This document shows, one piece after another, positions 7,769 to 46,916 of a stretch of 64,000 nt of DNA; position 1 is the stretch's first letter, and each line of letters begins with the position of its first letter. The position numbers were made by a program, and so were the translations under genes. Below the pieces are notes generated by a model that had not been told where the DNA came from, made no database searches, and saw nothing but the letters and a program-made list of their open reading frames with translations. This DNA comes from Candidatus Enterousia sp. (GTDB taxonomy: Bacteria; Pseudomonadota; Alphaproteobacteria; Rs-D84): the NCBI GenBank assembly GCA_045635585.1, contig JAZTWA010000005.1:13101-77100 (forward strand). Reading direction: 5' to 3'.

Positions 7769-7797
7769 AAAAAATCCCCCGTTTGGGGGATTTTTTT
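7769..7797. terminator. Intrinsic terminator, ATCCCC family
   Basis: aaaaaatccccc-gttt-gggggattttttt at the end of the 1061-aa gene. Confidence 0.85.
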
Positions 7798-10700
7798 AAT
7801 CCAATGTAATCGTGAAGACTCCGCCATATGTTCCGACGGGTTCGCCACCAACATAACATTCGATTTTGGAACCGACGTTATCCATAAATTCTTGGATGGC
7901 TTCTTGTTCGGCTTTATCCAATTCGGCGTCTTGAACAGCCTTGGTTATACCGTAACCCAATCCAGCACCGGCACCAGCACTGATAACACCGCCCAACAGT
8001 TTACCACCGTTTTTATCCCACCATTCGCCAGCCTGTGACTTTTCTTTTTCAATAGACTGGGCATTTTCATACATTTCTGTGGTCAAATCATCACATTGTG
8101 TTTTCATATCTTCAATTTGCTCAAAGAATGCGCTTGCAGTATTAGTATTAGTATTAGTATTATAGTTTGCACGTGCCGAATCATATGCGGATGTTGTTAC
8201 GACATCGAATTTTTCAAATATCTTTAACACACGATTTTCGTATTTTTGGTATCCGGCTTCTTTCGGCGTTGCGCTACTTTTAAATAAATTCGCAAAAGCA
8301 TCAACCATTTTATTACACTGATTTTTTTGTGCCTTTAATTCCGTATTTGACATAACGGCGGTGTTTTTCTTTTGATTCAAGCCACCCAATACGCCATCAC
8401 CTTTATTCTTGGAACCATTTTGGATATAATCACCCAAGAATACGCCACCGGTCCCCAGACCCAATGCACCAACCGCGGCCATCCAACCAGCAATCTTTGG
8501 CTGTGATGCTTCTTTGGTGTCGCGTGCGTCTTGACCCGCCTTTTCTGACAATTCTTTTAATTTATCAGATGGAATCCATGAACCACATACGAATGCGTCA
8601 CCAACCGCAAAGTATGTTGTCGCCCAATCTGCACCCGCATTGATTGCATCTTGGATATATTTATCATCGGAATGCAACGTTACACGTGCACGACAGAAGG
8701 AACCATACAAATCGTTACTGGCCACCATTTGATTTGCTTTTAATCCGTTTCCAGTATATCCATTTGGAACCTTGTTCGATTTCAATTTTACCCACATATA
8801 TGTTGAACCATTATCTTTGGCCCCCATGATGCCGCCATTGTTCATGGCAAAGCAACGATTTTGTTCTTGGGTTAATTTTGCATTATATTTCGCCTGGGCT
8901 TCGATTTCCAAATCGTAAATCAGGTCGCGGAACAATGTGCTGGCCGCCTGGGTTTCGGCATATGTCGTATATGAAATCATAACAGGTTTATCATATACTG
9001 CACCATTTGCATCAACATTGAAACATACCCCTTGGTCGCCAGACGCATTTGAACACAGCTGATTACCATATTCATCTGTTGCCTGAACTTCTTCGGTTGT
9101 GGCGGTCATCTTGGACGCACCACCCGCATCAATCCATCCACCACGTACCGTTGTGGAATTACCCCAACTGGACGCACCGACACTCTTGTCTTGGATTTTC
9201 ATTTTATTTGTTTCGATTGCCAAGTGTTCTTCACAAACAGATGCGTTTTTAACCGTATCAACACACAATCCCAATACGATTGTATAATCCAAAACACCAC
9301 CAACCTTGTTCATTGATTTATCAAACGATGCATCACCACTGTTGGTTAATGTTGAATACATATCTGTACGATTGCGATAGCAATTTACATAATCTGTACC
9401 ACACAATGACTTAACACAAGATGTCGCAACAGATTGACATTGTTTCTTCATCTGGGCAATTGCGGCATCACTATAATTTGTTGCCAATGATGCATTTAAT
9501 GATGCAATTACACCAATTGGGTCCGCTTCTGCGCCAGAATCATATTCTGGGAACAATGTATCAAATGCATCACCCATATTAAATGAATATGTGTATGTAC
9601 CCGTTGCATTTGGATTTTGGGCCGCATATTTACAATTCGCGTCGGTATTTACAATAGATGCACAACCCGTTCTGATTTCTTCACGTGTGTATTCGTTGTT
9701 AATTGTTTTGTCGCCATTACCAAAAACCTGGGAATAACATGCCGCACCAGAACCAGAACCACAAACACGCATTGCACATGACGATAATGTTTGCGCACAT
9801 TTTTCTTTGGCACGCGTATCAAACTTTTCAACCAATTCGGTTACACGCGCCTTCATGCCAGAATTGTAACGCGCACTGTATGCCGCATCAAAGATTTCTT
9901 CTTGGTTATCTTCGTCACGCAACTGGGACGCGGTTGGCATCATGCCATCGCCCAAGAATGTTGCATAACAATATTTGTTTGAACCAATTGTATCCAAACA
10001 TGAATTCTTGATATAGGCAGATATATTTGATTTATCGACCGTCGTCATCGTTTCCGCCAATTCTGTGACTGATGTACCGTTATTAATAGCATCAACCAAA
10101 CTGATTGTGCCAGCAGTTGCATTTTCATAACATTTGTATGGATTGGCCGTACATGCACCCAAGAAACATTGGTCAACAACCTTGTAACATGTGGATACCG
10201 CGTTTACCGCCGCCAATGCGCCACCTTCGGCAATTAATTCACCAACACGACTGGACGCGGTTGGATTTGCCGTCAAAGATGATGAACCCAACAATTCTGT
10301 TACACCTTCGCCCTGACAACGCGCCAAGGTAGAATCACAATAAACGCGCTGTTTCTTGAATTCAGCATTCGTTGTACATAATTCAAATTCAGAACCACAA
10401 ACACTGTCTTTTTTCAAGCATGATGTATAACGTTTTACACATGTCGATGTATCGTATTTGTTCGAAATCGCCGCCGCAGTAATCAATTGTTCCAGAACAC
10501 TGCCAGTCGCAGGATATTTATAACTGGCCACTTCGCCATAAGAATTTGTTGTCGCAACATCAGACAACGCCGCAACGTTAGATGTACCAAACAAACTTTT
10601 TATACCATCAGATGAACACTGGGCCAATGTGGACAAACATTGTGGCATTTTTGCGTGAAACAAGATACCAGTTGTACATTCTTCGAAATTTGGCCCACAG

Positions 10701-10981
10701 ATGTCCGCACCCTTGATACATTCGGAATATGCATCAATACAGTCAGTATTATTCAACAAAGACGATGTAGATGTCGTTGCCGCCGCAGCCACAGATGCAG
10801 TTGCAGTTCCGCCCTTGGCCCCAGTGACGTATGACGTCATAGTTGGCATACGACGAACCGCACCATTTGCAGACATCGCGGTCGCAGTGTTCATAACACT
10901 GGGGCGCGCAGTAACCGCATAGGCCGCAGGTATCACACTGAACAAAGCAATAAAACTTACCGTATTTTTGAGAAAAGACAT
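7796..10981 (-). CDS. Large exported cysteine-repeat protein (1061 aa), function unknown
   Basis: Signal peptide (...IPAAYA), 38 Cys by my count including five 6-Cys modules, and two Gly-rich hydrophobic segments near the C-terminus. SD GGAG upstream. Confidence 0.85.
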   Translation of the reverse strand: MSFLKNTVSFIALFSVIPAAYAVTARPSVMNTATAMSANGAVRRMPTMTSYVTGAKGGTATASVAAAATTSTSSLLNNTDCIDAYSECIKGADICGPNFEECTTGILFHAKMPQCLSTLAQCSSDGIKSLFGTSNVAALSDVATTNSYGEVASYKYPATGSVLEQLITAAAISNKYDTSTCVKRYTSCLKKDSVCGSEFELCTTNAEFKKQRVYCDSTLARCQGEGVTELLGSSSLTANPTASSRVGELIAEGGALAAVNAVSTCYKVVDQCFLGACTANPYKCYENATAGTISLVDAINNGTSVTELAETMTTVDKSNISAYIKNSCLDTIGSNKYCYATFLGDGMMPTASQLRDEDNQEEIFDAAYSARYNSGMKARVTELVEKFDTRAKEKCAQTLSSCAMRVCGSGSGAACYSQVFGNGDKTINNEYTREEIRTGCASIVNTDANCKYAAQNPNATGTYTYSFNMGDAFDTLFPEYDSGAEADPIGVIASLNASLATNYSDAAIAQMKKQCQSVATSCVKSLCGTDYVNCYRNRTDMYSTLTNSGDASFDKSMNKVGGVLDYTIVLGLCVDTVKNASVCEEHLAIETNKMKIQDKSVGASSWGNSTTVRGGWIDAGGASKMTATTEEVQATDEYGNQLCSNASGDQGVCFNVDANGAVYDKPVMISYTTYAETQAASTLFRDLIYDLEIEAQAKYNAKLTQEQNRCFAMNNGGIMGAKDNGSTYMWVKLKSNKVPNGYTGNGLKANQMVASNDLYGSFCRARVTLHSDDKYIQDAINAGADWATTYFAVGDAFVCGSWIPSDKLKELSEKAGQDARDTKEASQPKIAGWMAAVGALGLGTGGVFLGDYIQNGSKNKGDGVLGGLNQKKNTAVMSNTELKAQKNQCNKMVDAFANLFKSSATPKEAGYQKYENRVLKIFEKFDVVTTSAYDSARANYNTNTNTNTASAFFEQIEDMKTQCDDLTTEMYENAQSIEKEKSQAGEWWDKNGGKLLGGVISAGAGAGLGYGITKAVQDAELDKAEQEAIQEFMDNVGSKIECYVGGEPVGTYGGVFTITLD
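8139..8162. repeat. In-frame hexanucleotide tandem repeat (GTATTA)x4 encoding (NT)n
   Basis: Seen directly; translates as ...YNTNTNTNTAS... Confidence 0.9.
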
Positions 10982-11068: not shown

Positions 11069-12028
11069 TTATACATATTCCAAAATTTCTTTCAGTTCCA
11101 TCATGTCATCTGGCAAACGTGATTTAAAGTGCATCTTTTGCCCAGTTACAGGATGAACAAAGTCCAAAACCGCCGCGTGTAACATCTGGCCATCATGGGC
11201 GCGCAAAAATTCCAATAATTCCGGATCACGCACACTGCCCAAACGGGTGGTACCACGACCATACAAAGGATCACACAGAACCGGAAAACCATGCGCCGAT
11301 AAATGCACACGTATCTGGTGCGTACGACCAGTAAACAATGTACAACGCATTTGAGATACACCCGCACGCGACCAGGCGTTCATAACCGCCACTTCGGTAT
11401 GCGATGGTTTACCACCGGTTTTTACCATTGTCATTTTCTGGCGATTACGCGATGAACGCGCAATATTACCGGTGATATCTGCAACTTCCCAATTTGGAAC
11501 ACCCCAAACAAACGCAATATATTGACGGGTCAAATCATGTTCCGAAAAGATTTTCACCAACCCACGAAATGCCGCATCAGATTTTGCAAATACCATTACA
11601 CCACTGGTATCCTTGTCCAGACGATGAACAACCCCAGGACGCGTATCACCACCCAATGCAGACAAATGTGTATGCGCCAAAATATTCTGGACCAATGTGC
11701 CAGTCTTGTTACCCGCAGATGGATACATCACGACACCACGTGGTTTATTTACAACGATTATATCGTCATCTTCGAACAAAATTTCCAAATCAAAATCAGA
11801 TGATATATTTTCGGTCGCAACATCTGTTTGAGGCACAGGAACAATAACACGAAAGACATCACCAGAACGTATCTTTTCCGAAAACTTTACCGATGAACCA
11901 TCAGCACGCGTTACGTCAAAACGTTGAATCTCGCTGCGTGAAAATTCAGGCATCTGGGCCGACAAATACTTATCAATACGAACAACTTCGTCTGTATCAT
12001 TAACAATAAATTCACGAATATCTTGCAT
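11069..12028 (-). CDS. rluD: RluA/RluD-family 23S rRNA pseudouridine synthase
   Basis: S4-like N-terminus (RIDKYLS), NKPRG, HRLDKDTSG and TGRTHQIRVH motifs. Start refined to MQDIREF (12028). Confidence 0.92.
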   Translation of the reverse strand: MQDIREFIVNDTDEVVRIDKYLSAQMPEFSRSEIQRFDVTRADGSSVKFSEKIRSGDVFRVIVPVPQTDVATENISSDFDLEILFEDDDIIVVNKPRGVVMYPSAGNKTGTLVQNILAHTHLSALGGDTRPGVVHRLDKDTSGVMVFAKSDAAFRGLVKIFSEHDLTRQYIAFVWGVPNWEVADITGNIARSSRNRQKMTMVKTGGKPSHTEVAVMNAWSRAGVSQMRCTLFTGRTHQIRVHLSAHGFPVLCDPLYGRGTTRLGSVRDPELLEFLRAHDGQMLHAAVLDFVHPVTGQKMHFKSRLPDDMMELKEILEYV

Positions 12029-12038
12029 AACAAAAAAC

Positions 12039-12500
12039 CTATTTATAATCTTGCCAATCTGGGCCAACAGTACAATCAGACAAATCAATCTTTAATTCGC
12101 GACCAGAATCAGATACCGGACATGTCAATAATCCCGTTGTTGTTGCCTGGTCTGCGTCACGCGTTGCATTACGATACGCAAAATGTATTTCACGCGGCGC
12201 CGCAACACACGCAATTCGCAAATGTTCATGATTTTGACCATTTGGACCAATCCAAACGCGAACACCATCACCCAAACCATAACATGGAAAGCCATCCAAA
12301 TAATACAAAACCAGACCACGACCAACCAAGCGCGCATCTGGGATAAACGTTCCGCGATATTCAGATAAATTTAATCCTGTTACAGCCTGCCAATCTGTGC
12401 TGGTGGAAAAAATACTAATCCTTGGGGCGGGCGCAGATGAATCTGCAGCATTCGCAACAGACGTTATCAAGAACAAAAACAATGCAATTATTTTTTTCAT
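12039..12500 (-). CDS. Exported hypothetical protein (153 aa, 4 Cys)
   Basis: Classic signal peptide MKKIIALFLFLITSVANA. Four-base overlap with the upstream gene. Confidence 0.75.
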   Translation of the reverse strand: MKKIIALFLFLITSVANAADSSAPAPRISIFSTSTDWQAVTGLNLSEYRGTFIPDARLVGRGLVLYYLDGFPCYGLGDGVRVWIGPNGQNHEHLRIACVAAPREIHFAYRNATRDADQATTTGLLTCPVSDSGRELKIDLSDCTVGPDWQDYK

Positions 12501-13021
12501 TTATCCCCCTGTGGCACATCTAAATCAGCCAACTTTGCAACAATCTTGGTTACACCTTTGGGCAACGGCGCCAAAACATGACTGAAATCCACACTAGCCC
12601 CAGCATCAAGTAGCGTCGCAGACGGCATAAACTTTTGACGCGCCAAAATGTTATTTCTATCGTCCAACGAAACAATTATTAAATCAGGAACGCCATATAT
12701 ATCCGATGAAATATTTGAAATCGTACCAGACACAATATAACGAACCGCCCCCGTATCATCAGTTGTCGTTTCAACCCCAGAAACAGACGCAACCAATGGT
12801 CCCACAGGGCGATGTGAAGCCTGATGATGCGTAATAACCGCAATCGCAAAAACAACCGCAGACAACAACGCACAAACAGACGCAAAAAACATCAACCATG
12901 TATTCTTGCGGGGACGTGCAGGAACACGCCATACATGACCACAAACCGCACACTTAACAGGACATGTTGGCATAGAAGACAAAGCATATTCTGTTTTACA
13001 AAAATCACATTTCGTTTTCAT
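12497..13021 (-). CDS. Zinc-ribbon / TM / DUF3426 protein (ZitP-like)
   Basis: CDFC...CAVCGHVW zinc ribbon, one TM helix, and a C-terminal Ig-like domain (VSGTISN...VPDLIIVSLD). Confidence 0.8.
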   Translation of the reverse strand: MKTKCDFCKTEYALSSMPTCPVKCAVCGHVWRVPARPRKNTWLMFFASVCALLSAVVFAIAVITHHQASHRPVGPLVASVSGVETTTDDTGAVRYIVSGTISNISSDIYGVPDLIIVSLDDRNNILARQKFMPSATLLDAGASVDFSHVLAPLPKGVTKIVAKLADLDVPQGDK

Positions 13022-13041
13022 ATTTTTATATATACCACAAA

Positions 13042-14358
13042 TTATTCTAAATTCAACTGGCGATATTTGGCACGAACACGTGTCTGAATTTCGGATATCG
13101 CATTCATATAATCTGCAACTGTCGCATTCTTGTTTGCAGAAACAGCCGCAAAAATACGACCAGATTCTGTCGCAGAATCACCATAATGATATGTCGCCAA
13201 TGACGCCATACGATTTAACTCAACAAAAGATGCGTCTGCAAAATTCGCCACCTTGTTTGACAAGTCCCAATAATAATCCGATTGCTGTGAATCCGCAATT
13301 TTCTTTGATACAGCCAGACGTGGCGTCATGGACCCCGTAAAACCAACGGTTACAAACATTGCACTGATACGACCCGCAGTCATGTCCAGCGACTGATTTA
13401 TCTTTAGAAAAGAAAAATTATCTTCGGTACTAATCGACAAACCGCCCAGAGTCAAATTTGATACCCACAAATTCTGTGCGGTTACCGATGAAAACTTGCC
13501 CAACTCGGACAATAATAAACCACGCGACACTTCCATGGACTTTGCATCCGACGACATCATACCAGAAACCGTTGCTGATGCAACTTTGAATGCATTATCA
13601 ATAGTTGTGCGATTTTGAAAAATCAAATCATTTGTCGCAATCTGTAATGCTTTTAGCCCTTCGGTAAATTCGGCAAATTCTGCATTCACAAATGCCGAAT
13701 TCACAATATCATGCCCACCAAGATTTAATGCAGACATCATTTTTGCATCATCTGCATTCCCAGAAGGCACACGCCATAAATACAGTGAACTATCGCGATT
13801 TACATTCGTCGTTTCAACAATTGCATTTTTTACATCAATCCCCAAATCAACACTGTCTGTATGCCAAACACCAAAGGTACCGTACGCATGTTTATCTTCG
13901 ACAAAGCCCATCGTACCACCAGACAAATTTACAATTTCACGTGTACGTAATGGCGATATATCATCAGATACGCGTATAACCACACCCTGTAATGTTGAAT
14001 GCCCTGCGGCATCACTGGACTTTAAAATACGCAACTGGTACAAATCTGCATCTGATTCCAATATCGCATCCGGAATTCCATATTCAACCAACTGAGCCAA
14101 CTTTACGCGGGTAATATTTTTACCAACCGTCTTTAATAAATCTTCACGATGCGCAACAATGTATCGTTCCAGCGCAGATTGAATAATAGACATTTGATTT
14201 GTTATGGCGATATTTTGTGCACGTGTAACCGACCCTTGTTGTAAACGAAATGCAAACGGTATAACAATCGCCGCCAATGCAACACACAACAGCAATTCAA
14301 CCAGCATGTTTCCACGCATTTCATTTTTTCGCCCAAATAGTTTTATATATTTTTTCAT
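13042..14358 (-). CDS. PilV/Shufflon_N-like type IVb minor pilin, paralogue 1
   Basis: Prepilin site RG|NMLVE followed by a hydrophobic helix; GGTMGFV...YGTFGVW; YLWR...MMSALNLGGHDIVN block. Confidence 0.7.
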   Translation of the reverse strand: MKKYIKLFGRKNEMRGNMLVELLLCVALAAIVIPFAFRLQQGSVTRAQNIAITNQMSIIQSALERYIVAHREDLLKTVGKNITRVKLAQLVEYGIPDAILESDADLYQLRILKSSDAAGHSTLQGVVIRVSDDISPLRTREIVNLSGGTMGFVEDKHAYGTFGVWHTDSVDLGIDVKNAIVETTNVNRDSSLYLWRVPSGNADDAKMMSALNLGGHDIVNSAFVNAEFAEFTEGLKALQIATNDLIFQNRTTIDNAFKVASATVSGMMSSDAKSMEVSRGLLLSELGKFSSVTAQNLWVSNLTLGGLSISTEDNFSFLKINQSLDMTAGRISAMFVTVGFTGSMTPRLAVSKKIADSQQSDYYWDLSNKVANFADASFVELNRMASLATYHYGDSATESGRIFAAVSANKNATVADYMNAISEIQTRVRAKYRQLNLE

Positions 14359-14359
14359 C

Positions 14360-15577
14360 TTAGTTTATCGTAAATATTTGTGGTTGTATTGATCCCTGCC
14401 ATCCGTCACGCATCAAAGAATCAAATTCTGATACGACTGGTGCATCCGGTAATTTAGCGCGCGACAAATTAAATTCCGAAAATGCAGGCGGTCGATTTGA
14501 TGGGAATGTCCATGCACCTAATTTTAACGGAGGTGTTGTTGACATCAATAATTCACCAGATACCGTCAGACCAAAATTATTATAAAACATCATTTCATCA
14601 GCAGAAACAAATGGCGTTACAACCGAACTGGCACTGATACCGGTAAAACCACTGATTGTACGAGTAGAATCTGATTTCAAAACGAATTTGTTACCGATAT
14701 TTATATCGCCCAATATCTTGATTCTGTCCGCAATTATATGTCCAGTTGTTGTAAAACCACGACCATTTATATTGTCTGCAAATACATTACGAAATCCCGA
14801 CACGTCACCAGATACACGAATATTACCAATCGACACATCTTGACCGTCCATATTCGCACCAGATTTAAAATAAACACTGCGCGCAGAAAGATTTGGCGCT
14901 TCGACAAAGGTTACATTTGCATTGCGGGCCCGCAAGGACTTTCCCGACAATGTCGCAACATTATACACATTATGATATGCCATATTCAAATCACGCTCCA
15001 TGACATTCAAATTATCTTCACCAGATGTGGCGCGATGCAAAAAACGCGATGTGTCTTGCCCAGAAAATTCACGCGATATGCGATATATCAAATCCCCCGT
15101 TACAAAATCAGGCGCCATAACCGCCCATGTTGAACCATACGCAACACCATCTGCACCAACAACCGCAGCATCACCACCAATATGTCGCGCAATTTTGTTT
15201 GTACGTAATTCATTGTCGTTCGACGAAAATGCCAAATATACATCTGTTACCATTGCGCCATTTATTGCATATTTATCAATAAAACCCGCCACCGCATCGG
15301 GTGATATAGACGACAATTCTTCGGGGGTTAATTGTATCTGAACAATATCAGGCCATTTATCTTGATTCATACGAACAAAATTCAACACACCATCACGCGA
15401 AGAAATTATCTTGCGCGAAACAGCAATATCATGAATTGTATGATTTGTTTGGGCAATTTGATTATAAACAAACGGCGTTGCCATACCAACAATCGCCAGT
15501 GCCAGTAACACTTCGACAACACTGGCACCCGACATAGAATTTGAAAAAAATTTGTTATTTAACACAGTCACTGCCAC
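14360..15577 (-). CDS. PilV/Shufflon_N-like type IVb minor pilin, paralogue 2
   Basis: SG|ASVVE prepilin site; GGDAAVV...AYGSTW; FLHR...LNVMERDLNMAYHNVYN block. Confidence 0.7.
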   Translation of the reverse strand: MAVTVLNNKFFSNSMSGASVVEVLLALAIVGMATPFVYNQIAQTNHTIHDIAVSRKIISSRDGVLNFVRMNQDKWPDIVQIQLTPEELSSISPDAVAGFIDKYAINGAMVTDVYLAFSSNDNELRTNKIARHIGGDAAVVGADGVAYGSTWAVMAPDFVTGDLIYRISREFSGQDTSRFLHRATSGEDNLNVMERDLNMAYHNVYNVATLSGKSLRARNANVTFVEAPNLSARSVYFKSGANMDGQDVSIGNIRVSGDVSGFRNVFADNINGRGFTTTGHIIADRIKILGDINIGNKFVLKSDSTRTISGFTGISASSVVTPFVSADEMMFYNNFGLTVSGELLMSTTPPLKLGAWTFPSNRPPAFSEFNLSRAKLPDAPVVSEFDSLMRDGWQGSIQPQIFTIN

Positions 15578-16913
15578 CCGCCATTAAACATTTTTTTATA
15601 TCGATTCTTTTTTCTAGATTTTGCCAAAACAAATACTGACAAATCAAATATTGGGACAAAGATTGTTTGTTATAAACACCTTCGAATTCTTCAATTATTT
15701 TTTTACATGCAATTGTTTTTTTATCATCAGACTTTGCATCTTCAATAATACTAAAAACATCATTATTAATTCCTGCAACTAGGGCATCTGGCAACATTGA
15801 TGTTCCCGCCGGACGAATATCCAAAATAACCGCACCAGACGCACCCTGATTTAATGCAATTGATGTCTGGTCACGAAGCGTTATATTTGACGTATAAATA
15901 ACACCCGTTTCAATCCCAGATTTAGTACTATAATCCAATGTCTCTTCATCAATATAAACATCTTGACCACGTGTCGCACTTAGATACGAAGATATATCCA
16001 AACGTTCAACACTGAATGATACATTGTCCGACATCAGATTACCATGAACCGTCCATGACGCCCCACCCGTAAATGACGTACGACCCGCAGTCATTGACAT
16101 ATCATAGATAGACACATCGTTTGCTTCGATATTACCTGTATCACCAAACATAGACACCGTTCGAAAATTTGCGCTATCCACAAACAACGTTCCGCGATTT
16201 AACGACAAGGCCGCTTCACCAGTCGCACTTTGAAACACCGCCTTTTCCGCAGAAATATCTTCGATTTTATTTCTGACCTTGCGCCCAGATTCAAGCCCTG
16301 TTATAGACAAGGTTGTAAACTGGGCCGTATCAAATTCGCCACGAACACCAAATAAATTCCCAACATTATTCAAGACAAACCTTCCCATATCCAAGTCTGT
16401 CAAAAAGCCACTATTATCAATATCAGGCTCATCACGTCGAACAATATCCGAATACACATCTTGTAATTCAATACCAATATTTACCCCAACATCAGTATAC
16501 GTTGCATAAAAACCAATTCGACGTGCCAATTCAGCACGTTCAACTTCACTTAAATCGCCACCCAACAATTCCAAATACGCAGACACAGCCATGGGCGTTT
16601 TATGTATAACTAATGATATATTTTGCCCCAATGCCGTTCGCGGCACATACCCCAACGGCAAACCATATGGTTCCAACAAGTCAACAAAATCATCCCCAGA
16701 AACAACGGTTGTGTTATACATTAAATTTTTTGCGTTTTCGCGTATAAAAATTCGCGCGGCCGTTTGGGCTGTTTCAACCTGATGAGTGGTCGCATACATC
16801 CTAGAATCTGTATTACGGCGCGCCATTTGACGCGACAGAAACGGGATAAAAGCAAACATCAATCCCATTGCCAACAATGCTTGTAATAAAAAACTGCCAC
16901 GTTGCTGATGCAA
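15555..16913 (-). CDS. PilV-like type IVb minor pilin, paralogue 3 (E5 replaced by Q)
   Basis: RG|SFLLQ prepilin site and IVRR...FLTDLDMGRFVLNN block. Start refined to TTG 16913 (SD AGGGGG upstream), giving leader MHQQRG. Confidence 0.65.
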   Translation of the reverse strand: MHQQRGSFLLQALLAMGLMFAFIPFLSRQMARRNTDSRMYATTHQVETAQTAARIFIRENAKNLMYNTTVVSGDDFVDLLEPYGLPLGYVPRTALGQNISLVIHKTPMAVSAYLELLGGDLSEVERAELARRIGFYATYTDVGVNIGIELQDVYSDIVRRDEPDIDNSGFLTDLDMGRFVLNNVGNLFGVRGEFDTAQFTTLSITGLESGRKVRNKIEDISAEKAVFQSATGEAALSLNRGTLFVDSANFRTVSMFGDTGNIEANDVSIYDMSMTAGRTSFTGGASWTVHGNLMSDNVSFSVERLDISSYLSATRGQDVYIDEETLDYSTKSGIETGVIYTSNITLRDQTSIALNQGASGAVILDIRPAGTSMLPDALVAGINNDVFSIIEDAKSDDKKTIACKKIIEEFEGVYNKQSLSQYLICQYLFWQNLEKRIDIKKCLMAGGSDCVK

Positions 16914-16938
16914 AAAAATCCCCCTACTTGACATCATC

Positions 16939-16967
16939 AGCATAGCAATACAAAAAAAATATTGCAA
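16939..16967 (-). promoter_or_regulatory. Putative sigma70 promoter of the pilV-like operon
   Basis: TTGCAA-17-TATGCT, with a T8 run inside the spacer. Confidence 0.55.
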
Positions 16968-17070
16968 TTGCTTTTAAGATGTTTTAGTATCCTTTTTGTT
17001 AAACATAGACAACAATGTTTTGTTGCATGGGATAAATTCCTGATATACATATTTAAAAAAAGAAATAATT

Positions 17071-17397
17071 ATGCAAAATAAAAAAAATCAATCAAACGTA
17101 ACTCAGATGATTCAACGTTGCCATAAATGGCGCCAAAAAAGAAAACAACTGATTGACCAGGCACGACAAATATCAGACGAAATTGAACGCGAACGTGTCT
17201 TGCAAACCGCAGAACACTATGGTCGAATTGTTAATAGCGAACAAATCAAAATCGATTCTATGCGCGACCCAAAAGATAAAAACACAACACCAGAAGTCGT
17301 GGCGGATACAAACGAAACAAACGACACATCTGAAACATCAGAAACAACCGATGATGACGAAGTAAGTTTTCCTGACTTTATTACGAATTTAAATTAA
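17071..17397 (+). CDS. DUF4167-like protein
   Basis: ...ERERVLQTAEHYGRIV resembles the alphaproteobacterial DUF4167 core; acidic disordered tail. Confidence 0.7.
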   Translation: MQNKKNQSNVTQMIQRCHKWRQKRKQLIDQARQISDEIERERVLQTAEHYGRIVNSEQIKIDSMRDPKDKNTTPEVVADTNETNDTSETSETTDDDEVSFPDFITNLN

Positions 17398-17398
17398 T

Positions 17399-17428
17399 AA
17401 AAACGCGCCAAACTGGCGCGTTTTATTT
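17399..17428 (+). terminator. Intrinsic terminator
   Basis: aaaacgcgcca-aac-tggcgcgtttt. Confidence 0.8.
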
Positions 17429-17429
17429 G

Positions 17430-17457
17430 TTGAAATTTCACACTGTTTTGCTATGCT
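17430..17457 (+). promoter_or_regulatory. Putative sigma70 promoter of the dnaX operon
   Basis: TTGAAA-16-TATGCT, followed by SD AAGGA and ATG 17480. Confidence 0.55.
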
Positions 17458-17479
17458 GGGGCAAAAGGAAGTTTACATT

Positions 17480-19045
17480 ATGAATAACAACTATACTGTT
17501 TTGGCACGCAAATATCGCAGTCAGGATTTCAAAACACTTATTGGCCAAGATGTTCTGGTAAAAACATTGACCACCGCAATTAATACATCACGTATTGCAC
17601 ATGCATATATTTTCACCGGTATTCGTGGAACAGGAAAAACCAGTACGGCACGTATATTGGCCAAGGCATTAAACTGTCAGTCATGTGAAAACGCAACACC
17701 AAATCCATGTGGGGTTTGCGAAAACTGTCGTGCAATTGCAGCCGGTCAACATATTGACGTTATGGAAATTGACGCGGCGTCACATACAGGCGTGGACAAC
17801 ATGCGTGATATTATGGATGCGGCACAATATCGCCCAACAAATGGTCGATACAAGGTTTATATAATTGACGAAGTTCATATGCTATCTACTTCGGCATTTA
17901 ATGCGTTGTTAAAAACACTGGAAGAACCGCCTGCACATGTTATATTTATTTTGGCAACAACAGAAATTCGCAAGGTTCCTGTTACTATTTTATCACGATG
18001 CCAAAGATTTGATTTGGTTCGTGTGCCGGTTGACACACTAAAAAAACATTTCGCATGGATTGCAGAACAGGAAAACATTCAATTATCCGATGAAGCAAAT
18101 GAATTATTGGCACGTGCGGCCGATGGTTCTGTGCGCGACGGACTATCATTACTAGACCAAGCCATCGCGCAAACCGGCGGAAACGTTACTGCGGATGCGG
18201 TTTTGGATATGTTAAAACGTGCGGACCGCGGCGTGGTTGTTGACTTTATGAAAACATTATTATCCGGCGATACCGCCGCAGCATTGGACAAAGTTGATAC
18301 AATTTATAACAACGGTGCCGATCTTGCGATGTTGTTGACCGATATGATGGAATGGACACACTGGGCCACCAGAATGCACCCTGCACTGCGTGCAGGCGAA
18401 ACACAAAATTCACCATATACCGCCGACCAACGCGATCAAATACACGACATTAATTCGCGTATATCTGTAAACACTTTATCACGCATATGGCAGGTTATGG
18501 TTGCCGCTGTTCCTGAAATGCAGGCCGCAGGGAATCAAAAACAATGCTTTGATATGCTGGTCATTCGTATGATGCACATCGCAGATATGCCATCTGTTCC
18601 CGAAATATTAAAACAACAAGAATCCGAAAATCGGGTACGTGATGTAAAAAACATCTTGGCCGACAGAATGGCAAAGTCAACTGATGAAAAAACAGAATCA
18701 AAACCACAATTCAAAAATATCACAAGTGCATCAGAATTGGCAGAAACACTGCAAGAAACCAAAGAAATACTGTTGTATTCATATTATAGCAACAATATAG
18801 AAATCACAGAATTTTCGGACGGAAATATAAAATACTTTGACCGCAAAGGAGATGCCGATTTTGCACATAAATTATCGAAATGGTTAATGGACAAAACGGG
18901 TCATGCATGGACACTGGTACGCGAAACCCAATCAGCAAACACACAAACAATATCTGAACAAAAACAAGAAGAATTAGAGGCAGACCCATTGGTTGCCAGT
19001 GCAATGAGTTTATTTGAAAATGCAGAAATCGTAGGAGTAAAATAA
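17480..19045 (+). CDS. dnaX: DNA polymerase III subunit gamma/tau
   Basis: LARKYR, Walker A GIRGTGKT, C4 zinc motif, IIDEVHMLS, LKTLEEPP and SRCQRF. Confidence 0.97.
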   Translation: MNNNYTVLARKYRSQDFKTLIGQDVLVKTLTTAINTSRIAHAYIFTGIRGTGKTSTARILAKALNCQSCENATPNPCGVCENCRAIAAGQHIDVMEIDAASHTGVDNMRDIMDAAQYRPTNGRYKVYIIDEVHMLSTSAFNALLKTLEEPPAHVIFILATTEIRKVPVTILSRCQRFDLVRVPVDTLKKHFAWIAEQENIQLSDEANELLARAADGSVRDGLSLLDQAIAQTGGNVTADAVLDMLKRADRGVVVDFMKTLLSGDTAAALDKVDTIYNNGADLAMLLTDMMEWTHWATRMHPALRAGETQNSPYTADQRDQIHDINSRISVNTLSRIWQVMVAAVPEMQAAGNQKQCFDMLVIRMMHIADMPSVPEILKQQESENRVRDVKNILADRMAKSTDEKTESKPQFKNITSASELAETLQETKEILLYSYYSNNIEITEFSDGNIKYFDRKGDADFAHKLSKWLMDKTGHAWTLVRETQSANTQTISEQKQEELEADPLVASAMSLFENAEIVGVK

Positions 19046-19503
19046 TGAAAATGGAATCTGGACGTTCTTTGATTGAAGTTATTGGCGTAATGGCAATTGC
19101 AGGATTAATGACGATATCCGCATTAGGTGCGTATAAAATGATACGCGCAAATCAGACACGAAATATCGCAGACGCCGAATTAAAACAAATTGTACAGAAT
19201 GTAAAAATACTGATGGAAATGCGCGGTTCGTACGAAGGGGTCAGCGTTGATTATTTAATCAAGGCAGGCGCTTTACAATCCAATCGCGCGCCAATTGGTG
19301 GTGAAAACTGGTCTATTTATGCAAGCGCGGATGGCAAATCTTTTTCAATTAATTTAATTGATTTAACAAACGGCGAATGTGAATACTTTGCAAACAAAAA
19401 GCACAATTGGGCATCCGCAATGTTAATCAACGGATTTGAATCAGGGTTAACCAACAACTGTTTCGATTCTGATACAAATCAGATTTCTTTTATTGTTGAA
19501 TAA
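19045..19503 (+). CDS. Type IV pilin (PilS-like) / pseudopilin, 152 aa
   Basis: MKMESG|RSLIEVIGVMAIAGL prepilin motif with E5, and a C-terminal Cys pair. TAATG overlap with dnaX. Confidence 0.8.
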   Translation: MKMESGRSLIEVIGVMAIAGLMTISALGAYKMIRANQTRNIADAELKQIVQNVKILMEMRGSYEGVSVDYLIKAGALQSNRAPIGGENWSIYASADGKSFSINLIDLTNGECEYFANKKHNWASAMLINGFESGLTNNCFDSDTNQISFIVE

Positions 19504-20189
19504 TGAATGTATTAAAAAATATATTTTTATTATCTTTTTGCTGCGCATTTGTTTCGGGATGCGCAACATATACCAGCCCAGAACGAAGCACATGGTTTTC
19601 ATATTTGAACGGCGCCAGCTTTACAGACATGACCGAAATGTCGCGTGTCGCAAAACGTCCCGTATATTTGGGCGCAGCCGGCAAACTGATAAACAATGCG
19701 GTTAGTACACCTGATTCAATGGAATACGGAAACAAGGTTGAAAATGACAACATTATTGCCAAACAATATATGTCACAATTGGAATACGAACTGTATGATG
19801 CATTGCGCAAACCTGGGATATCCGTTCAACGCGCAGGAACAGATGTTGTTATAATCCTTGTGCGTGATGCAATTATGGAAATGAACGTTGCAGATATTTC
19901 ACAAACTGGTGATGACACATTAAAAACAATTGAAAAAATCTTAAACAAGTATAACGCTACTTTTATTGAAATCGCGGGCTATACAGATGCGATGCGTAAT
20001 ACAGATGCGGCATCGGCACTATCTTTGGACATGGCACAACGTGTCGGTGTACATATGGCCCAACACAAGATAAATACTGCACGTTTATTTATTGTGGGAC
20101 GCGGCGCAACACGACCAATTGCCGCACAAGATGATATCGGCCGTTTAACTAACAGACGCGTTGAAATTCGTCTTAGTCCCGCCAGATAA
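19503..20189 (+). CDS. OmpA-family lipoprotein
   Basis: Lipobox FVSG|C and OmpA C-domain motifs IAGYTD and NRRVEI. TAATG overlap with the pilin gene. Confidence 0.85.
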   Translation: MNVLKNIFLLSFCCAFVSGCATYTSPERSTWFSYLNGASFTDMTEMSRVAKRPVYLGAAGKLINNAVSTPDSMEYGNKVENDNIIAKQYMSQLEYELYDALRKPGISVQRAGTDVVIILVRDAIMEMNVADISQTGDDTLKTIEKILNKYNATFIEIAGYTDAMRNTDAASALSLDMAQRVGVHMAQHKINTARLFIVGRGATRPIAAQDDIGRLTNRRVEIRLSPAR

Positions 20190-31303: not shown

Positions 31304-33511
31304 TTATTTTTTCGTACCGCCTTTTTGTGCACTGTCTTTTGTCCATGAACGGATGTTATAATTATCAGCACCGTCATCTGATTGGCCCCAATTTCCTTTG
31401 GACGCGCTCATATCTATTCCCATGGCTTGGCGCAGACAGTATTCACGCAACTGTGCAGAATCTTTGGTTATATTATCACCATATTCTGGGGTAAAATTCT
31501 CCAAACTTTCTACATATGCACCGTTCAAGATTTCATTTAACGTTACAACGTTACGGCATGTATTTGTTGTATAATCTCGGCTGTTTGTGCAAGAAGCAGC
31601 GTCCGCTTTGTCGATAACCGCATTAAACCCGGCACCAAATGGGATACAAATCATTTCTTCGTAACAGTGTGGAATATTTGAAATCTGGGCACAATATGTT
31701 TTTATGCGCGCAGTTGGCCAATCTTCATCTTCCTGATCTTCATAGCAATCCAGAATTTCTGTTAAACATTCATTAAGGTTTGTTCCCGCCGTCTGGGCCG
31801 CATTCAATATTGATTCTGCTTCGGCCTGGGCAAAATCAAGACGCTTTTGCTGTAATGCCTGTTGTGCCGCAACCTTTTGATAACCGATGTTTTGTGCGGT
31901 TGCACGCAACTGTTCACCATACGCATCACAGTCCGCATTCGCATCCAATGCATATTTCTGCATAATGCTGCGACGTGCATCGGCAACCGGTGTACGCAAA
32001 TTAGAATATGGGTCACCAGATGTTGAATTATAACCAAAGCATGCCGCAGAATTTGATGCCGAATAACTGCTGTTTGCTTTGACAAAATCTAATTCATACG
32101 AACCGGTATTATTTACAGTTATATGACTGTTGTAATTAAATGGACATTGGGACGCACCATTGCTGCACTTGGTGCCAGATGGTGGGGTTCCGCATGCCTC
32201 ATAAATACCGTTAAAGCATGAATCCAAAACACGTGCACAAACATTGTTATGCGCATATTCAAACAATTCATAGCCCCACGTTTCCGCCAATGAATCTTTG
32301 GTTTCTTCCGCACTGTTCAATGCGCCACCGATACCAGACATTCCGTTAACAACACTGGACAAGTTATCAAAGGCAGATGACAAACTGTTGTTATCGTCGG
32401 TCAGGATTGTAATCGTGCTTTCTTTTGCCTTGGCCCATGATTGTAAAGACGCCAAAATATCCGAACCATTACCATCTATATCATCAATATCAAACCCGAA
32501 ATCATTGCCACCTTTATCATCTGTACAATATTTTGGCTTAGTACAGGATGTAACCTCACCGCTGCCATCTTCTTTATAAATACCATGATTCGAACACCAT
32601 TCAATTGCTTCTTCTGAAGACGTCCCATATTCATTAGTCACATCTTGCCATGAAACACAATTCAAGACCTTTTCGGCGTCGGTTAATTTGAACGCTTCGG
32701 ATATATCTTTACCATTGCTGGCCACCAATAATGCCAATTCACCAGAAACCTTAATCAATTCTTCGTTGGCGGTTTCTAATGCGGCCTGCGCCTCTGCAAA
32801 GGCGCGAACACGACCCGCACATGCACAACGACGTTGGGCCGCATTACGTGCCGTACAAATTTCGTCCATACATGTATAATATGATTCCATACAATTACTG
32901 AACGCTTCTGATGAAATCAGGCCAGTTGTTGAATCAATAATATTTGAATAATTACCTGTGTACAGTTTGCTGGTCAAATATGAATATGTTGATGATGTTG
33001 TTCCCGACGCCTTGGCACCGCGTATCGCACTGCCCTGTAATGAAATGCGCGCGTTATTTGCCGCATCAGTTGTTGCAGTACGCGCACGCACCGTACGTCT
33101 TTGATTTGCCTGGGCGCGATTTGTTGCCGCCGTCTGACGCGATACAACATTACGCTTTGTCGTGGCATTGGCACGTGATGTCGCCGCACCCGTTGCACGA
33201 TTTGTTGCCGCACGCGAAACAACCGTACGTGATGCCGCACCAGTTATTGCCCCCCTATCCGCAACAGCAGTACGCGCAACCGCACGACGTGATGTTGTGG
33301 CGGTGTTACGTGGACTAACCCGGCCAGATGTGCGCGCATTTGCACGACCAGATTGTGGCCCAACAATCATATTTGAATCCATCGGCGCAATTGGGTCCGC
33401 GAATACAGAACGTATCGACAAAAATGTCGAACATACAAAAAATGCCCCCGCCAGCAAAAACACCGTACCCATGGCATTTTTCAAGGAATCTGTTATTTTT
33501 TTATCAGCCAT
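31304..33511 (-). CDS. Exported cysteine-rich protein (735 aa) with R/A/T-rich N-terminal arm
   Basis: Signal/anchor helix, about 100 aa of low-complexity basic sequence, and 24 Cys by my count including C-x6-C-x4-C. SD AGGAG. Confidence 0.85.
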   Translation of the reverse strand: MADKKITDSLKNAMGTVFLLAGAFFVCSTFLSIRSVFADPIAPMDSNMIVGPQSGRANARTSGRVSPRNTATTSRRAVARTAVADRGAITGAASRTVVSRAATNRATGAATSRANATTKRNVVSRQTAATNRAQANQRRTVRARTATTDAANNARISLQGSAIRGAKASGTTSSTYSYLTSKLYTGNYSNIIDSTTGLISSEAFSNCMESYYTCMDEICTARNAAQRRCACAGRVRAFAEAQAALETANEELIKVSGELALLVASNGKDISEAFKLTDAEKVLNCVSWQDVTNEYGTSSEEAIEWCSNHGIYKEDGSGEVTSCTKPKYCTDDKGGNDFGFDIDDIDGNGSDILASLQSWAKAKESTITILTDDNNSLSSAFDNLSSVVNGMSGIGGALNSAEETKDSLAETWGYELFEYAHNNVCARVLDSCFNGIYEACGTPPSGTKCSNGASQCPFNYNSHITVNNTGSYELDFVKANSSYSASNSAACFGYNSTSGDPYSNLRTPVADARRSIMQKYALDANADCDAYGEQLRATAQNIGYQKVAAQQALQQKRLDFAQAEAESILNAAQTAGTNLNECLTEILDCYEDQEDEDWPTARIKTYCAQISNIPHCYEEMICIPFGAGFNAVIDKADAASCTNSRDYTTNTCRNVVTLNEILNGAYVESLENFTPEYGDNITKDSAQLREYCLRQAMGIDMSASKGNWGQSDDGADNYNIRSWTKDSAQKGGTKK

Positions 33512-43186: not shown

Positions 43187-45439
43187 ATGGCAACTAAATT
43201 CAACATTTTATCAGCATCTGGCAAAGGAAAAGGTTTAAATATCTTTCGGTCCAGTTCATATAAAGAACACGAACAGACACCACTGGCGCGTGAATTTTGG
43301 TCAATACGTTGGGCAATATTTATATGGCTATTGGCGGCATTTATGTTTGCAATGGCTTTTCCAATTGAACACATATGGCGATATGGCTGGTCACCTGCAA
43401 CGAAACACTGGATAATTATTTATCTACAAAACTTTTTTATGTCGGGTGGCTTGTCCGCATTGGCAGAAATTCCATCGTGGATTGCGCGTTGCGTTATGCG
43501 ACCAGATATTCCATGCATAACACCACTGCTTCCGATAATCGGTTATTACCTGTTGGCTGATTCAACAATGACTGATGAATTTAACCCACACAGCAAGGAT
43601 AAATTTGATCCAAAAACATCGCGCGTCGCGACAATCAGTGATATCAAAAAAATGTCCCAAGACCATAAAAACAAAGAAGGATTGTTAAATGGCTTTATGA
43701 TGGTGTTGGGTTTTGTCAAAGACAAAGGCAAACCAAAACCATTAAAAATGGACGAATGTATGTCTGCACTGTTACTGGCACCCGCAGGTACCGGTAAAAC
43801 CAATGGTGTCGTTATACCAACAATTTTGGGGTGCGATACTGTTTCCATGATTATCAATGACCCAAAGCCTGAATTGCGTTATTCAACATCGGGATATCGT
43901 GCAACTGTTGGCCCCGTCTTTATATTAAACTGGGGTGCACGCGACGAACCAGAAAACGGGATTTATTATCCGGCATGGAATCCATTGTCCCCAGAAAATA
44001 TGCCTGATAATGCAGAAGAAAAAAGTACATATATTCAGGTTATTGTTAATACCGTTATTGAAGAAAACGCCAAGGATCCACACTGGTCTAATACGGCACG
44101 TGCGGCACTGACCGGATTTATAAACTTTATCGTATCCAAGGTTGAACGTGCCAAAGCAAATGACTATTTTTATTCAAGATTAATGAAGGGTACCTTTGAT
44201 TCCCAAGACGCAACCGTATTGATGGATTATTATATGACAATGTCATCCGACCCAAATGCATATGCAGCAATGTCATTGTTACAACAAGGCAAATTAACCA
44301 AAGAAAATTATGTTCATGTCGGGACGTGGGCGGGATTGCCACCCGAATGGCATGGGACCGAAGCATCAATCCCAATGTTCTTGGCATGGTATGTCGAAGG
44401 TCAATTAAAAATCGGTCAAGAACTGGAAGAACGCAAGCGTCAGGGCGACCAGATGGTTATGATGGCCGATCCAATGAAAGACTTTTTAACCGAAGCTGTT
44501 AATGAAGCGCAACTGTACGCATATGATAGTGATGCAATATCTTCGTTAATCAATTTGGCAAATACACCGGACAAGGAACGCGGGTCTGTTATTTCAACGA
44601 TGAATGCGGGATTAAATATTTTCCGACACCCAGCTGTAAACAAACATACACGACATTCTGATTTACATTTTACCGATGTACGCGGTATGGTTGACCCAAC
44701 AGACGGTCAGGTTAAGCCTGTTACAATTTATTTATCTATGAATGTTGCAGATGCGCCTGCATTTAAACCAATTACCAGCATGTTTATCGAACTGTTATCG
44801 AACTTTTTGATTGCAAATAAACCAGAGCACATAAATCATGGTAAAAAAATGGGGCCATTCCCTGCCCTGTTTGTATTGGACGAAATGCCAACCATGAATA
44901 AACTGGATGCAATTATCCAAGGTCCGGCCGTTGGACGTGGACAAATGGTATCATATCTGATTGTCGGTCAGGATATCAGCCAAATCGCCGATAAATATGG
45001 CGACAAAGCAACAGAAACAATTGTTGCAAATACGGCGGCAAAAATCATCTTGCGCGTTAATGACCCTGATACCGCCGCACGCTTTTCCAGCATGATGGGC
45101 AAGAAAAAAGTTAAAAAGAAAGAACGCGCAGTCGATGGCAAAGAATACGATGTCGATAAAGAAGAAGACTTGTTCAGCCCAATGGATTTGATGACACTGG
45201 CCAAAGGAAAACAGTTGGTATTGTTCCAAGGATTTTATAATCGACCAATCGAAGCAGATGGCGAATGGTATTTCCTGCGTCAATCACCGGTGCAAATCGA
45301 AATGGCGGCCAAGGTTGATTTGGGTGAAACAACACCAATCCCAGAATACATGATTCCAAAACACCATCGTGCATTACGATATGCGGGAAATCCACGTGTA
45401 TATAACCCCAAAACAAAAGAAGTAAAAGAACTAGTATAA
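43187..45439 (+). CDS. virD4: Type IV secretion coupling protein, VirD4/TraG family
   Basis: N-terminal TM helices, Walker A APAGTGKT, NDPKPEL, WNPL, Walker B FVLDEMP, and QDISQI..KYG. Confidence 0.9.
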   Translation: MATKFNILSASGKGKGLNIFRSSSYKEHEQTPLAREFWSIRWAIFIWLLAAFMFAMAFPIEHIWRYGWSPATKHWIIIYLQNFFMSGGLSALAEIPSWIARCVMRPDIPCITPLLPIIGYYLLADSTMTDEFNPHSKDKFDPKTSRVATISDIKKMSQDHKNKEGLLNGFMMVLGFVKDKGKPKPLKMDECMSALLLAPAGTGKTNGVVIPTILGCDTVSMIINDPKPELRYSTSGYRATVGPVFILNWGARDEPENGIYYPAWNPLSPENMPDNAEEKSTYIQVIVNTVIEENAKDPHWSNTARAALTGFINFIVSKVERAKANDYFYSRLMKGTFDSQDATVLMDYYMTMSSDPNAYAAMSLLQQGKLTKENYVHVGTWAGLPPEWHGTEASIPMFLAWYVEGQLKIGQELEERKRQGDQMVMMADPMKDFLTEAVNEAQLYAYDSDAISSLINLANTPDKERGSVISTMNAGLNIFRHPAVNKHTRHSDLHFTDVRGMVDPTDGQVKPVTIYLSMNVADAPAFKPITSMFIELLSNFLIANKPEHINHGKKMGPFPALFVLDEMPTMNKLDAIIQGPAVGRGQMVSYLIVGQDISQIADKYGDKATETIVANTAAKIILRVNDPDTAARFSSMMGKKKVKKKERAVDGKEYDVDKEEDLFSPMDLMTLAKGKQLVLFQGFYNRPIEADGEWYFLRQSPVQIEMAAKVDLGETTPIPEYMIPKHHRALRYAGNPRVYNPKTKEVKELV

Positions 45440-46053: not shown

Positions 46054-46839
46054 CTATTTTTCGGTACTTTTCAAGATATTTTGCACAGATTGTAATGCCG
46101 TCCATACATCACGCTTGGCCGCGGGTTTTAATATCAAATAATTTGGATGATATATCGGCACCAATGTTATATTTTCTGAATATTCAAATGAATTGCCATG
46201 CGATTTCGTCAGGTTTATTTCCATTAATTCTGATGCAGGTAACGTCCCCAATGTCAAAATTACACGTGGCGCAATTAATTCCACCACACGATTAACAAAT
46301 GGACGTGCCAAATCCAATTCCAAACGTGATGGCGCCCGCCCGCCGGGTGTACGCCAGAATATCATCGGAACAATAGATACATTTGCACGTGATAAACCAA
46401 TTGCCGCCAGCATCTTGTCCATCAATTCGCCGGATGCGCCTGATAAAATCGTACCTGTTGCGTCATCTTCACTGCTGGGGATATCTGTTATGATTAATAA
46501 ACTCCCCTGCCCCACATGTGGCAAAACAGTATTTGTTGCACATGCGCGTAACGGATGATTAAATTCGCCAATCATTCGACAAAGCGCAGACATGTCATTT
46601 GGACGCGACGCCATCGCACAAACCGTTTCAACCGATATCGACTGAGACGGCGCAATTGGCGGCACAACAGATGACGTCATACGACCAATCTCGGAAATAA
46701 GATTCCCCGATTCGCGACGCATATCTGATGCGGGCGCCATAGTTTCTGTTTTGGGCGGCGTTGGAACCATAAAAGAATTATCCGTTATTTCCCAACGTAC
46801 ACCCGCAGCAACCAAATCGCGCAACAATTTATCTGACAT
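46054..46839 (-). CDS. Uracil-DNA glycosylase family 4-like protein (diverged motif A)
   Basis: WRTPGGRAP, PRVILTLG and PIYHPNYL motifs. GE(A/G)PG is replaced by TDIPS. Start refined to ATG 46839. Confidence 0.8.
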   Translation of the reverse strand: MSDKLLRDLVAAGVRWEITDNSFMVPTPPKTETMAPASDMRRESGNLISEIGRMTSSVVPPIAPSQSISVETVCAMASRPNDMSALCRMIGEFNHPLRACATNTVLPHVGQGSLLIITDIPSSEDDATGTILSGASGELMDKMLAAIGLSRANVSIVPMIFWRTPGGRAPSRLELDLARPFVNRVVELIAPRVILTLGTLPASELMEINLTKSHGNSFEYSENITLVPIYHPNYLILKPAAKRDVWTALQSVQNILKSTEK

Positions 46840-46916
46840 CTGTGTTTTCCCTTGATTTTTCAATATTTCTATTGTACACTACACCAGGAGTAACAGAAAC
46901 TCAAGGGAGTATTTTC

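Follow-up and report, generated by a model that had tools for sequence, protein, structure and literature searches.

What use has a bacterium with a genome of at most about 1 Mb for three different pilins of one family, encoded side by side in its chromosome? The question is raised by a 64,000-nucleotide stretch of Candidatus Enterousia sp. (contig JAZTWA010000005.1; hereafter the window, in whose own numbering positions are given), where three consecutive minus-strand genes, here called A, B and C, encode PilV-like proteins and are followed by D, for a membrane-anchored zinc-ribbon protein, and E, for a small exported protein. Candidatus Enterousia and its order Rs-D84 are uncultured gut alphaproteobacteria with genomes of 0.75-1.0 Mb, and Rs-D84 is described as being without flagella, respiration and the standard sugar, amino-acid and peptide transporters (PMC12306168). 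In IncI plasmids, TP114 and PAPI-1, from which PilV is known, one gene encodes it, and a shufflon often accompanies this gene (PMC9045228, PMC5297154). In this work, we compared the five proteins and their orthologues with known pilins, followed the locus through 88 related loci and weighed what the trio may do. The comparisons support placing A, B and C in the PilV family of type IVb minor pilins, as true but remote members that arose by ancient duplication. A chromosomal, shufflon-free and strictly conserved PilV-family trio, with one member that carries glutamine at mature position 5 (Gln5), is new, and we consider it probable that the three proteins form a complex of fixed composition that primes, or sits at the tip of, a type IVb pilus with a PilS-like major pilin.

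The relationship to PilV is closest in C. As the reference we used the PilV encoded in the pil cluster of Serratia symbiotica plasmid pSsyis1, to which C aligns by BLASTP with an E value of 5e-14 (residues 40-237) and B with one of 0.002; in family-profile alignments by hhalign, C reaches 97.3% with 1.7e-11 and B 95.3% with 2.4e-8 (columns 1-218). The similarity is confined to the first ~220-240 residues of B and C. It includes the block that the preliminary description of this DNA had likened to the Shufflon_N region of PilV, a resemblance that held up when examined: YLHR...LNxMxRDLxM....IxN aligns with LYRF...LNRMHTAIDMGGHNLNN of plasmid PilV. When C was searched by tblastn against 7.3 Gb of plasmids, 23 plasmid records were matched, and the 15 listed all fall on annotated pilV genes (best 1e-6). 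The family domain PF04917 is reached by 2 of 11 C orthologues (best 5.8e-6), and one distant orthologue bears a precomputed hit to it, while NCBIfam and Pfam scans of A, B, C and E from the window itself gave nothing useful.

Among themselves, the three proteins are remote paralogues, with pairwise BLASTP values of 3e-5, 3e-5 and 5e-8. Alignment of family against family makes the relationship plainer (99.5% and 8e-23 for C with B; 99.1% and 7e-19 for A with B), and it is through the link to B alone that A is counted in the PilV lineage. The similarity ends after about 240-300 residues, and the final ~150-200 residues of each protein are without a detectable relative. The four cysteines at the C-terminus of A (403, 425, 442 and 450) have no counterpart in B, which contains no cysteine at all. 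An AlphaFold2 model of B, built with 25 diverse homologues, has a long helix (residues 20-74) followed by an alpha-beta head, with a predicted local distance difference test (pLDDT) score of 82-93; the confidently modelled, pilin-like part of B is its N-terminal 170 residues.

All three proteins also begin as prepilins do. The cleavage sites that had been noted in A, B and C (G↓S, G↓A and G↓N, with the arrow at the point of cleavage) are not chance occurrences, as they are conserved across 83-87 orthologues of each protein, in which the motifs are G↓NFLLQ for A, G↓ASxxE for B and G↓SMLVE for C. In the window, the leaders read MHQQRG↓SFLLQ (A), ...SMSG↓ASVVE (B) and ...EMRG↓NMLVE (C). B and C combine glycine at -1 with glutamate at +5 and a hydrophobic helix, whereas A has the glycine but glutamine at +5. 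Across about 85 genomes, this difference is kept: the glutamate is invariant in B, in C and in a small pilin encoded nearby, and A has glutamine throughout the Enterousia clade.

Few organisms carry these genes. The B family comprises just 98 clusters at 50% identity among 1.8 billion representatives. Relatives of C are encoded in 176 genomes when one genome per GTDB species is scanned, and the best 80 of these 176 are all Candidatus Enterousia or other alphaproteobacterial metagenome-assembled genomes from animal guts; the window's organism itself occurs in bovine gut metagenomes. Within this range the locus hardly changes. In essentially every one of the 88 loci that is uncut, ompH-ompA-pilin-dnaX-DUF4167 stands divergently to A-B-C-D-E-rluD and a gene for a giant Cys-rich protein, the order A-B-C is constant, and no copy of the trio is lost in loci free of contig-end cuts. 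None of the sampled lineages lacks any of the three classes, not even the distant ones (L005, L007, L008 and L090-L092; 25-57% G+C), and orthologues match their own class at 1e-58 to 1e-89 compared to 1e-7 or weaker for the others.

The preliminary description had proposed that D is linked to the trio, which is true for most but not all of this range. D and E lie behind the trio in 84-85 of the 88 loci, and rluD follows E in 85. L005 (25% G+C), L008 (38%) and L092 (57%, with another upstream context) keep A-B-C-D-E-rluD; an apparent loss of D in L005 is an assembly artefact, given that a run of N (L005:8783-9160) lies inside the gene and its C-terminal half continues in frame. Three distant lineages, L007 (56% G+C), L090 and L091, encode the trio in different surroundings, without D or E beside it. 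That the trio is kept there marks it as the ancient core, and D and E as a clade-specific addition. In the same three lineages, residue +5 of A is glutamate, whereas it is glutamine in lineages with D and E; the sample is small and the association may be merely phylogenetic.

What kind of assembly does such a set suggest? Blocks of 30 residues along A, B and C are about equally conserved (0.5-0.7), with the exception of the extreme C-termini, and this evenness fits a fixed stoichiometric complex better than interchangeable, fast-evolving adhesins. As a candidate in its own right, the idea of fast-evolving adhesin heads was rejected, the C-terminal halves being about as conserved as the pilin domains. 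A related alternative would make the three proteins alternative tips: each pilus would carry one paralogue, or its homotrimer, so that three specificities are available without DNA rearrangement, as a hard-wired counterpart of a shufflon. The variants of shufflon PilV indeed combine a common N-terminal region with differing C-termini (PMC9045228), and the similarity between A, B and C likewise ends after about 265-300 residues; the C orthologue of L008, with its extra Cys-rich C-terminal extension, can be read in the same sense. Yet the copy number of three and the order are fixed in all lineages, Gln5 is restricted to A across the Enterousia clade, and C-terminal halves as conserved as the pilin domains are unlike those of adhesins that track a host, all of which leaves this arrangement unlikely in our view.

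The L008 orthologue just mentioned (L008:11226-13064) has 612 residues, and its extension suggests modular growth of a tip protein. No shufflon-like repeats were found at positions 11500-17500, where just chance-level short repeats occur. The earlier statements that the genes have no plasmid context and no Rci recombinase stand: the window is housekeeping DNA without a plasmid or integrase gene, and a recombinase domain is absent among its scanned open reading frames (ORFs). A shufflon is not present in all PilV genes.

A fixed complex would give the exception in A a meaning. The tip pseudopilin of type II secretion, GspK, is without Glu5 since no subunit sits above it, and with its Gln5 A is, like GspK at the tip, the best candidate for the outermost subunit.

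A candidate for the major subunit is encoded 2.1 kb from A on the divergent strand, past dnaX. This 152-residue PilS-like protein has the leader MKMESG↓RSLIEV and two invariant cysteines (Cys112 and Cys139), and its gene is present in 74 related loci. In its family, 33 of 40 orthologues match PF08805 (PilS; best 3.9e-5) and 38 of 40 match N_methyl, whereas the window protein itself reaches PF08805 with an E value of 0.0062 and 17 bits, under the 22-bit cut-off. Profile searches of the PDB with this family return pilins only, including TcpA (E value of 0.016 over residues 8-118). At one end the gene overlaps the stop of dnaX and at the other the start of a gene for an OmpA-family lipoprotein (lipobox VSGC) in a plus-strand block at 17453-20189. 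Translational coupling of a pilin to a replication gene is unusual, and the arrangement is kept in the 74 loci.

Taken together, a fixed tip or priming complex could work as follows. An A24 prepilin peptidase would cleave A, B and C after the conserved glycine, and the three would then assemble into a hetero-oligomer of fixed composition that primes or caps the pilus, with A outermost, as its Gln at +5 and its disulfide-rich C-terminus suggest, and B and C below. The PilS-like pilin would polymerise under the trio, powered by an R64-type machine presumably encoded elsewhere on the chromosome. The C-terminal halves of ~200 residues would form the binding surface of the tip, by which the cell would most likely attach to a partner cell or to a host surface, and D and E, which the Enterousia clade translates together with the trio, would probably serve as accessory envelope proteins.

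The layout of the genes is that of an operon (Table 1). The five tightly packed minus-strand genes reported for this place are there, with the lengths given for the trio. The upper limit of 16967 had to be revised, as it is merely the TTG of the longest ORF, and A probably begins at the TTG at 16913, which lies seven bases past AGGGGGA, agrees with the starts of orthologues and yields a protein of 452 residues beginning with the leader given above. A and B overlap by 23 nt, B and C are separated by 1 nt and C and D by 20 nt, and the start of E lies on the stop of D in a 4-nt overlap (ATGA). The rluD ATG (12028) follows 10 nt beyond E, and this gene is probably carried in one transcript with the operon as a housekeeping passenger. 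Matches to promoter consensus between A and the divergent DUF4167-like gene are weak only.

Table 1 Position and strand of the trio, the genes around it and the divergent intergenic region in the window.
Feature	Position	Strand	Description
A	15555..16913	minus	452-residue PilV-like pilin paralogue; from ORF and start evidence
B	14360..15577	minus	405-residue PilV-like pilin paralogue
C	13042..14358	minus	438-residue PilV-like pilin paralogue, nearest of the trio to PilV
D	12497..13021	minus	174-residue bitopic zinc-ribbon protein
E	12039..12500	minus	153-residue exported protein
rluD-type pseudouridine synthase gene	11069..12028	minus	Pfam PseudoU_synth_2
Small PilS-like pilin	19045..19503	plus	152 residues
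Divergent intergenic region, A and DUF4167-like gene	16914..17070	no strand	likely operon promoter region
Exported Cys-rich protein	7796-10981	minus	1061 residues; no Pfam family

Two RNA-type gut sequencing runs contain short contigs on the locus, mostly at >=95% identity. They lie in A (15815-16058), in the region of the A/B junction (15336-15567), in B (14528-14777), in C (13774-13985), in D (12648-12991) and across the E/rluD junction (11754-12101), with identities of >=98% on A, B and the E/rluD junction. These contigs hint that the locus is transcribed and that E and rluD are co-transcribed.

Transcription may reach further. Downstream of the likely operon promoter region, the only strong terminator-like hairpin on the minus strand lies at 7796-7769, behind the gene for the 1061-residue Cys-rich protein, and since this gene reaches to that hairpin, the region's strongest terminator, it may share a transcript with the pilin operon. 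The protein has C-terminal hydrophobic segments rich in glycine and alanine, and its gene is found after rluD in 59 related loci. The possible presence of two exported proteins, this one and E, in one transcription unit with the trio would suit a pseudopilus, that is, a short periplasmic filament that A, B and C would prime and that would serve either secretion, exporting proteins such as E and the Cys-rich giants, or DNA uptake, importing DNA for ComEC; type IVb pili, too, secrete proteins (TcpF and CofJ). Such a role seems distinctly improbable, however, considering that the large tip subunits, of 405-452 residues, suit an exposed binding head, that E resembles no known substrate and that PilV and PilS, the nearest relatives, are components of cell-binding surface pili (PMC9045228, PMC5297154).

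Several observations weigh against the trio being a pilus tip at all. The first concern the proteins themselves. A has no significant direct match to pSsyis1 PilV by BLASTP, and its family profile match is weak. The PF04917 match to be expected of PilV proteins did not appear in A, B or C of the window, which are without a hit at E<=1 in the Pfam scan. The C-terminal half of B is beta-rich but poorly modelled, and the B model, only moderately confident as a whole (mean pLDDT of 68.5), retrieves no solved pilin or tip pilin from the PDB with Foldseek (best E value of 0.18). PDB profile searches with the A, B and C families give just weak matches of the N-terminal helix to pilins, with no PilV structure among the hits. 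Neither these searches nor the Foldseek search recovered the similarity to the trimeric tip pilins CofB and TcpB that had been brought forward, and the comparison with their trimers is thus an analogy only.

Other points concern the machine that such a tip would need. No pilus ATPase, platform protein, secretin, PilO2, PilP or A24 peptidase is encoded in the 64-kb window, and up to about 9 kb from the trio none of the assembly genes is found in the 88 related loci, which we compared with eleven reference type IVb proteins that included the ATPase, platform, secretin, PilO2, PilP, PilM, A24 peptidase and transglycosylase. A published survey of Rs-D84 genomes gives type IV pili only for another lineage (PMC12306168). 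The RNA contigs are short and of low depth, so that carry-over of DNA is possible, and both the hetero-oligomer and its adhesive role are inferred.

The same lack of assembly genes in cis, in all 88 loci, could be taken to mean that there is no filament and that the trio consists of bitopic proteins of the inner membrane, which retain a pilin-like anchor and act in the periplasm or envelope; a published account that reports no type IV pili for the order would agree (PMC12306168). Over about 85 genomes, however, B, C and the small pilin never depart from glycine at -1 and glutamate at +5, a constraint that makes no sense unless cleavage and packing into a filament are still of importance, and we therefore regard a role outside a filament as very unlikely. 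The fixed tip or priming complex remains the probable reading.

D and E lie outside the conserved core, and they are probably accessory envelope proteins that help to assemble or site the complex. D has a cytoplasmic MJ0042-type zinc ribbon (C5-x2-C8...C24-x2-C27-G-x-x-W31, with W31 invariant), a membrane segment at about residues 43-65 and then a periplasmic, beta-rich, DUF3426-like domain. Its orthologues match Zn_ribbon_4 in 22 of 22 cases and DUF3426 in 20 of 22 (best 1.9e-4), all under the Pfam cut-offs, and D of the window itself has no match to DUF3426 in the Pfam scan. E, described earlier as an exported protein with four cysteines, is just that: it has a signal peptide (...VANA↓AD), and Cys 73, 98, 127 and 143 are invariant. 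AlphaFold2 models it as an all-beta sandwich (mean pLDDT of 83.4), and it belongs to no known family, with a best Foldseek E value of 0.045 at a template modelling score of 0.22 and nothing significant in a PDB profile search.

D had been called ZitP-like, after the Caulobacter crescentus protein ZitP (CC_2215), and of this the domain order and the tryptophan have held, whereas the specificity of the ribbon has not. Like ZitP, D has an N-terminal MJ0042-type ribbon with a tryptophan four residues past the last cysteine, a single membrane segment and then a periplasmic domain, which in D resembles DUF3426 at the family level only, and the D family aligns with residues 1-49 of ZitP at an hhalign E value of 2e-8, which places W31 on W35 and K23 on R27. 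As a control, the AgmX finger, which reportedly has no localisation in Caulobacter, aligns with D at 1.3e-7; a match about as good as that of ZitP makes the ribbon similarity generic to MJ0042-type fingers. A ZitP-specific zinc ribbon in D was rejected as a candidate on this control.

If D were nonetheless a ZitP orthologue, it would bind PopZ and fix the pilus at the cell pole. In ZitP, Trp35 and a basic patch bind PopZ, and the corresponding tryptophan is invariant in D, whose K23 takes the place of R27; ZitP orthologues also exist in reduced alphaproteobacteria such as Rickettsia (PMC5182065). DUF3426 is matched at the family level, and in L092 as well as in the Enterousia clade translational coupling ties D to the pilin operon. 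ZitP itself, however, has 311 residues with a CXXC-X19-CXXC ribbon and DUF3426 at 128-245, its link to pilus biogenesis is genetic, and it serves assembly of the Tad (type IVc) pilus through CpaM (PMC5182063). D, by contrast, has 174 residues, a spacing of X15 and no acidic cytoplasmic linker (PMC5182063), and ZitP is not encoded with pilins. Neither CpaM nor a Tad pilus is seen here, and no PopZ-like or CpaM-like gene is present in the window (no hit to DUF2497 or a deacetylase). L007, L090 and L091 keep the trio without D beside it, linkage of D within the Enterousia clade is no tighter than that of rluD or dnaX, and AgmX matches the ribbon equally well. Orthology with ZitP is in our judgement improbable, and a role for D in polarity is no more than possible.

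The rest of the window is core chromosome, with yidC, lspA, ksgA, recR, a PBP5-type carboxypeptidase gene, dnaX, truB, mutS and rlmN as well as lptD/F, ppdK, pnp, parAB, gidB, gyrB, der and mreB. A few of its genes stand out. A lone gene for a VirD4/TraG-type coupling protein (43187-45439, plus strand) lies among translation genes, and in some relatives (L001, L002 and L004) it directly adjoins the ompA-pilin-dnaX block. An ORF of 735 residues (31304-33511, minus strand), without a Pfam match at E<=0.1, stands singly among housekeeping genes (lptF/G and ppdK). Two genes of the uracil-DNA glycosylase superfamily, at 46054-46863 and 52433-53128 (both minus strand), fall within 7 kb, which is notable for so small a genome.

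How does the trio compare with known systems? Its nearest relative is PilV, a minor pilin that acts as tip adhesin in the type IVb thin pili of R64 (IncI1), TP114 (IncI2) and PAPI-1, and with which B and C share the prepilin N-terminus with Glu5 and the first ~240 residues, including the LYR...LNxM..(I/L)(D/N)(M/L)GGH.(L/I).N block; the length, of about 430 residues, is similar, and a PilS-type small pilin is the partner in both. The differences are as clear. There are three fixed paralogues here rather than one gene, with no shufflon and no Rci, and they lie in the chromosome amid housekeeping genes, far from any pil machinery; their C-terminal ~200 residues are unrelated to those of PilV, and A, with its Gln5, has no direct PilV match. 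PilV-family proteins are thus not limited to plasmids and islands with shufflons, and a conserved set of pilins akin to the adhesin of a conjugative pilus is a concrete candidate for the contact device of Enterousia.

A bolder version of this comparison can be drawn, which we hold to be rather doubtful. In it, A (with Gln5), B and C would form a PilV tip that is a hard-wired heterotrimer, and thereby the first heteromeric equivalent of the CofB and TcpB homotrimers, capping a type IVb pilus with genes scattered over the ~0.9-Mb chromosome. That pilus would be the main cell-contact organelle of a partner-dependent Enterousia and would act with chromosomal VirB/VirD4 genes as the IncI thin pilus does with the conjugation channel, with D and E as a new, dedicated pair for assembly and placement.

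Tips built of several pilin-like subunits are known from the GspK-GspI-GspJ complex of type II secretion and from FimU-PilVWX of type IVa pili, and GspK, the outermost subunit, is without Glu5, as is A in the Enterousia clade. There is no homology between these and the trio (no Pfam or NCBIfam hits), whose members are paralogues of one another and much larger. CofB of the CFA/III pilus of enterotoxigenic Escherichia coli and TcpB of the Vibrio toxin-coregulated pilus are analogous in another respect, as large, modular minor pilins that are thought to initiate assembly and to be located at the tip, but they are homotrimers of one gene product, whereas three distinct genes are found here. Placed beside these systems, the trio offers a natural case for how the tip of a type IVb pilus forms from several subunits rather than one.

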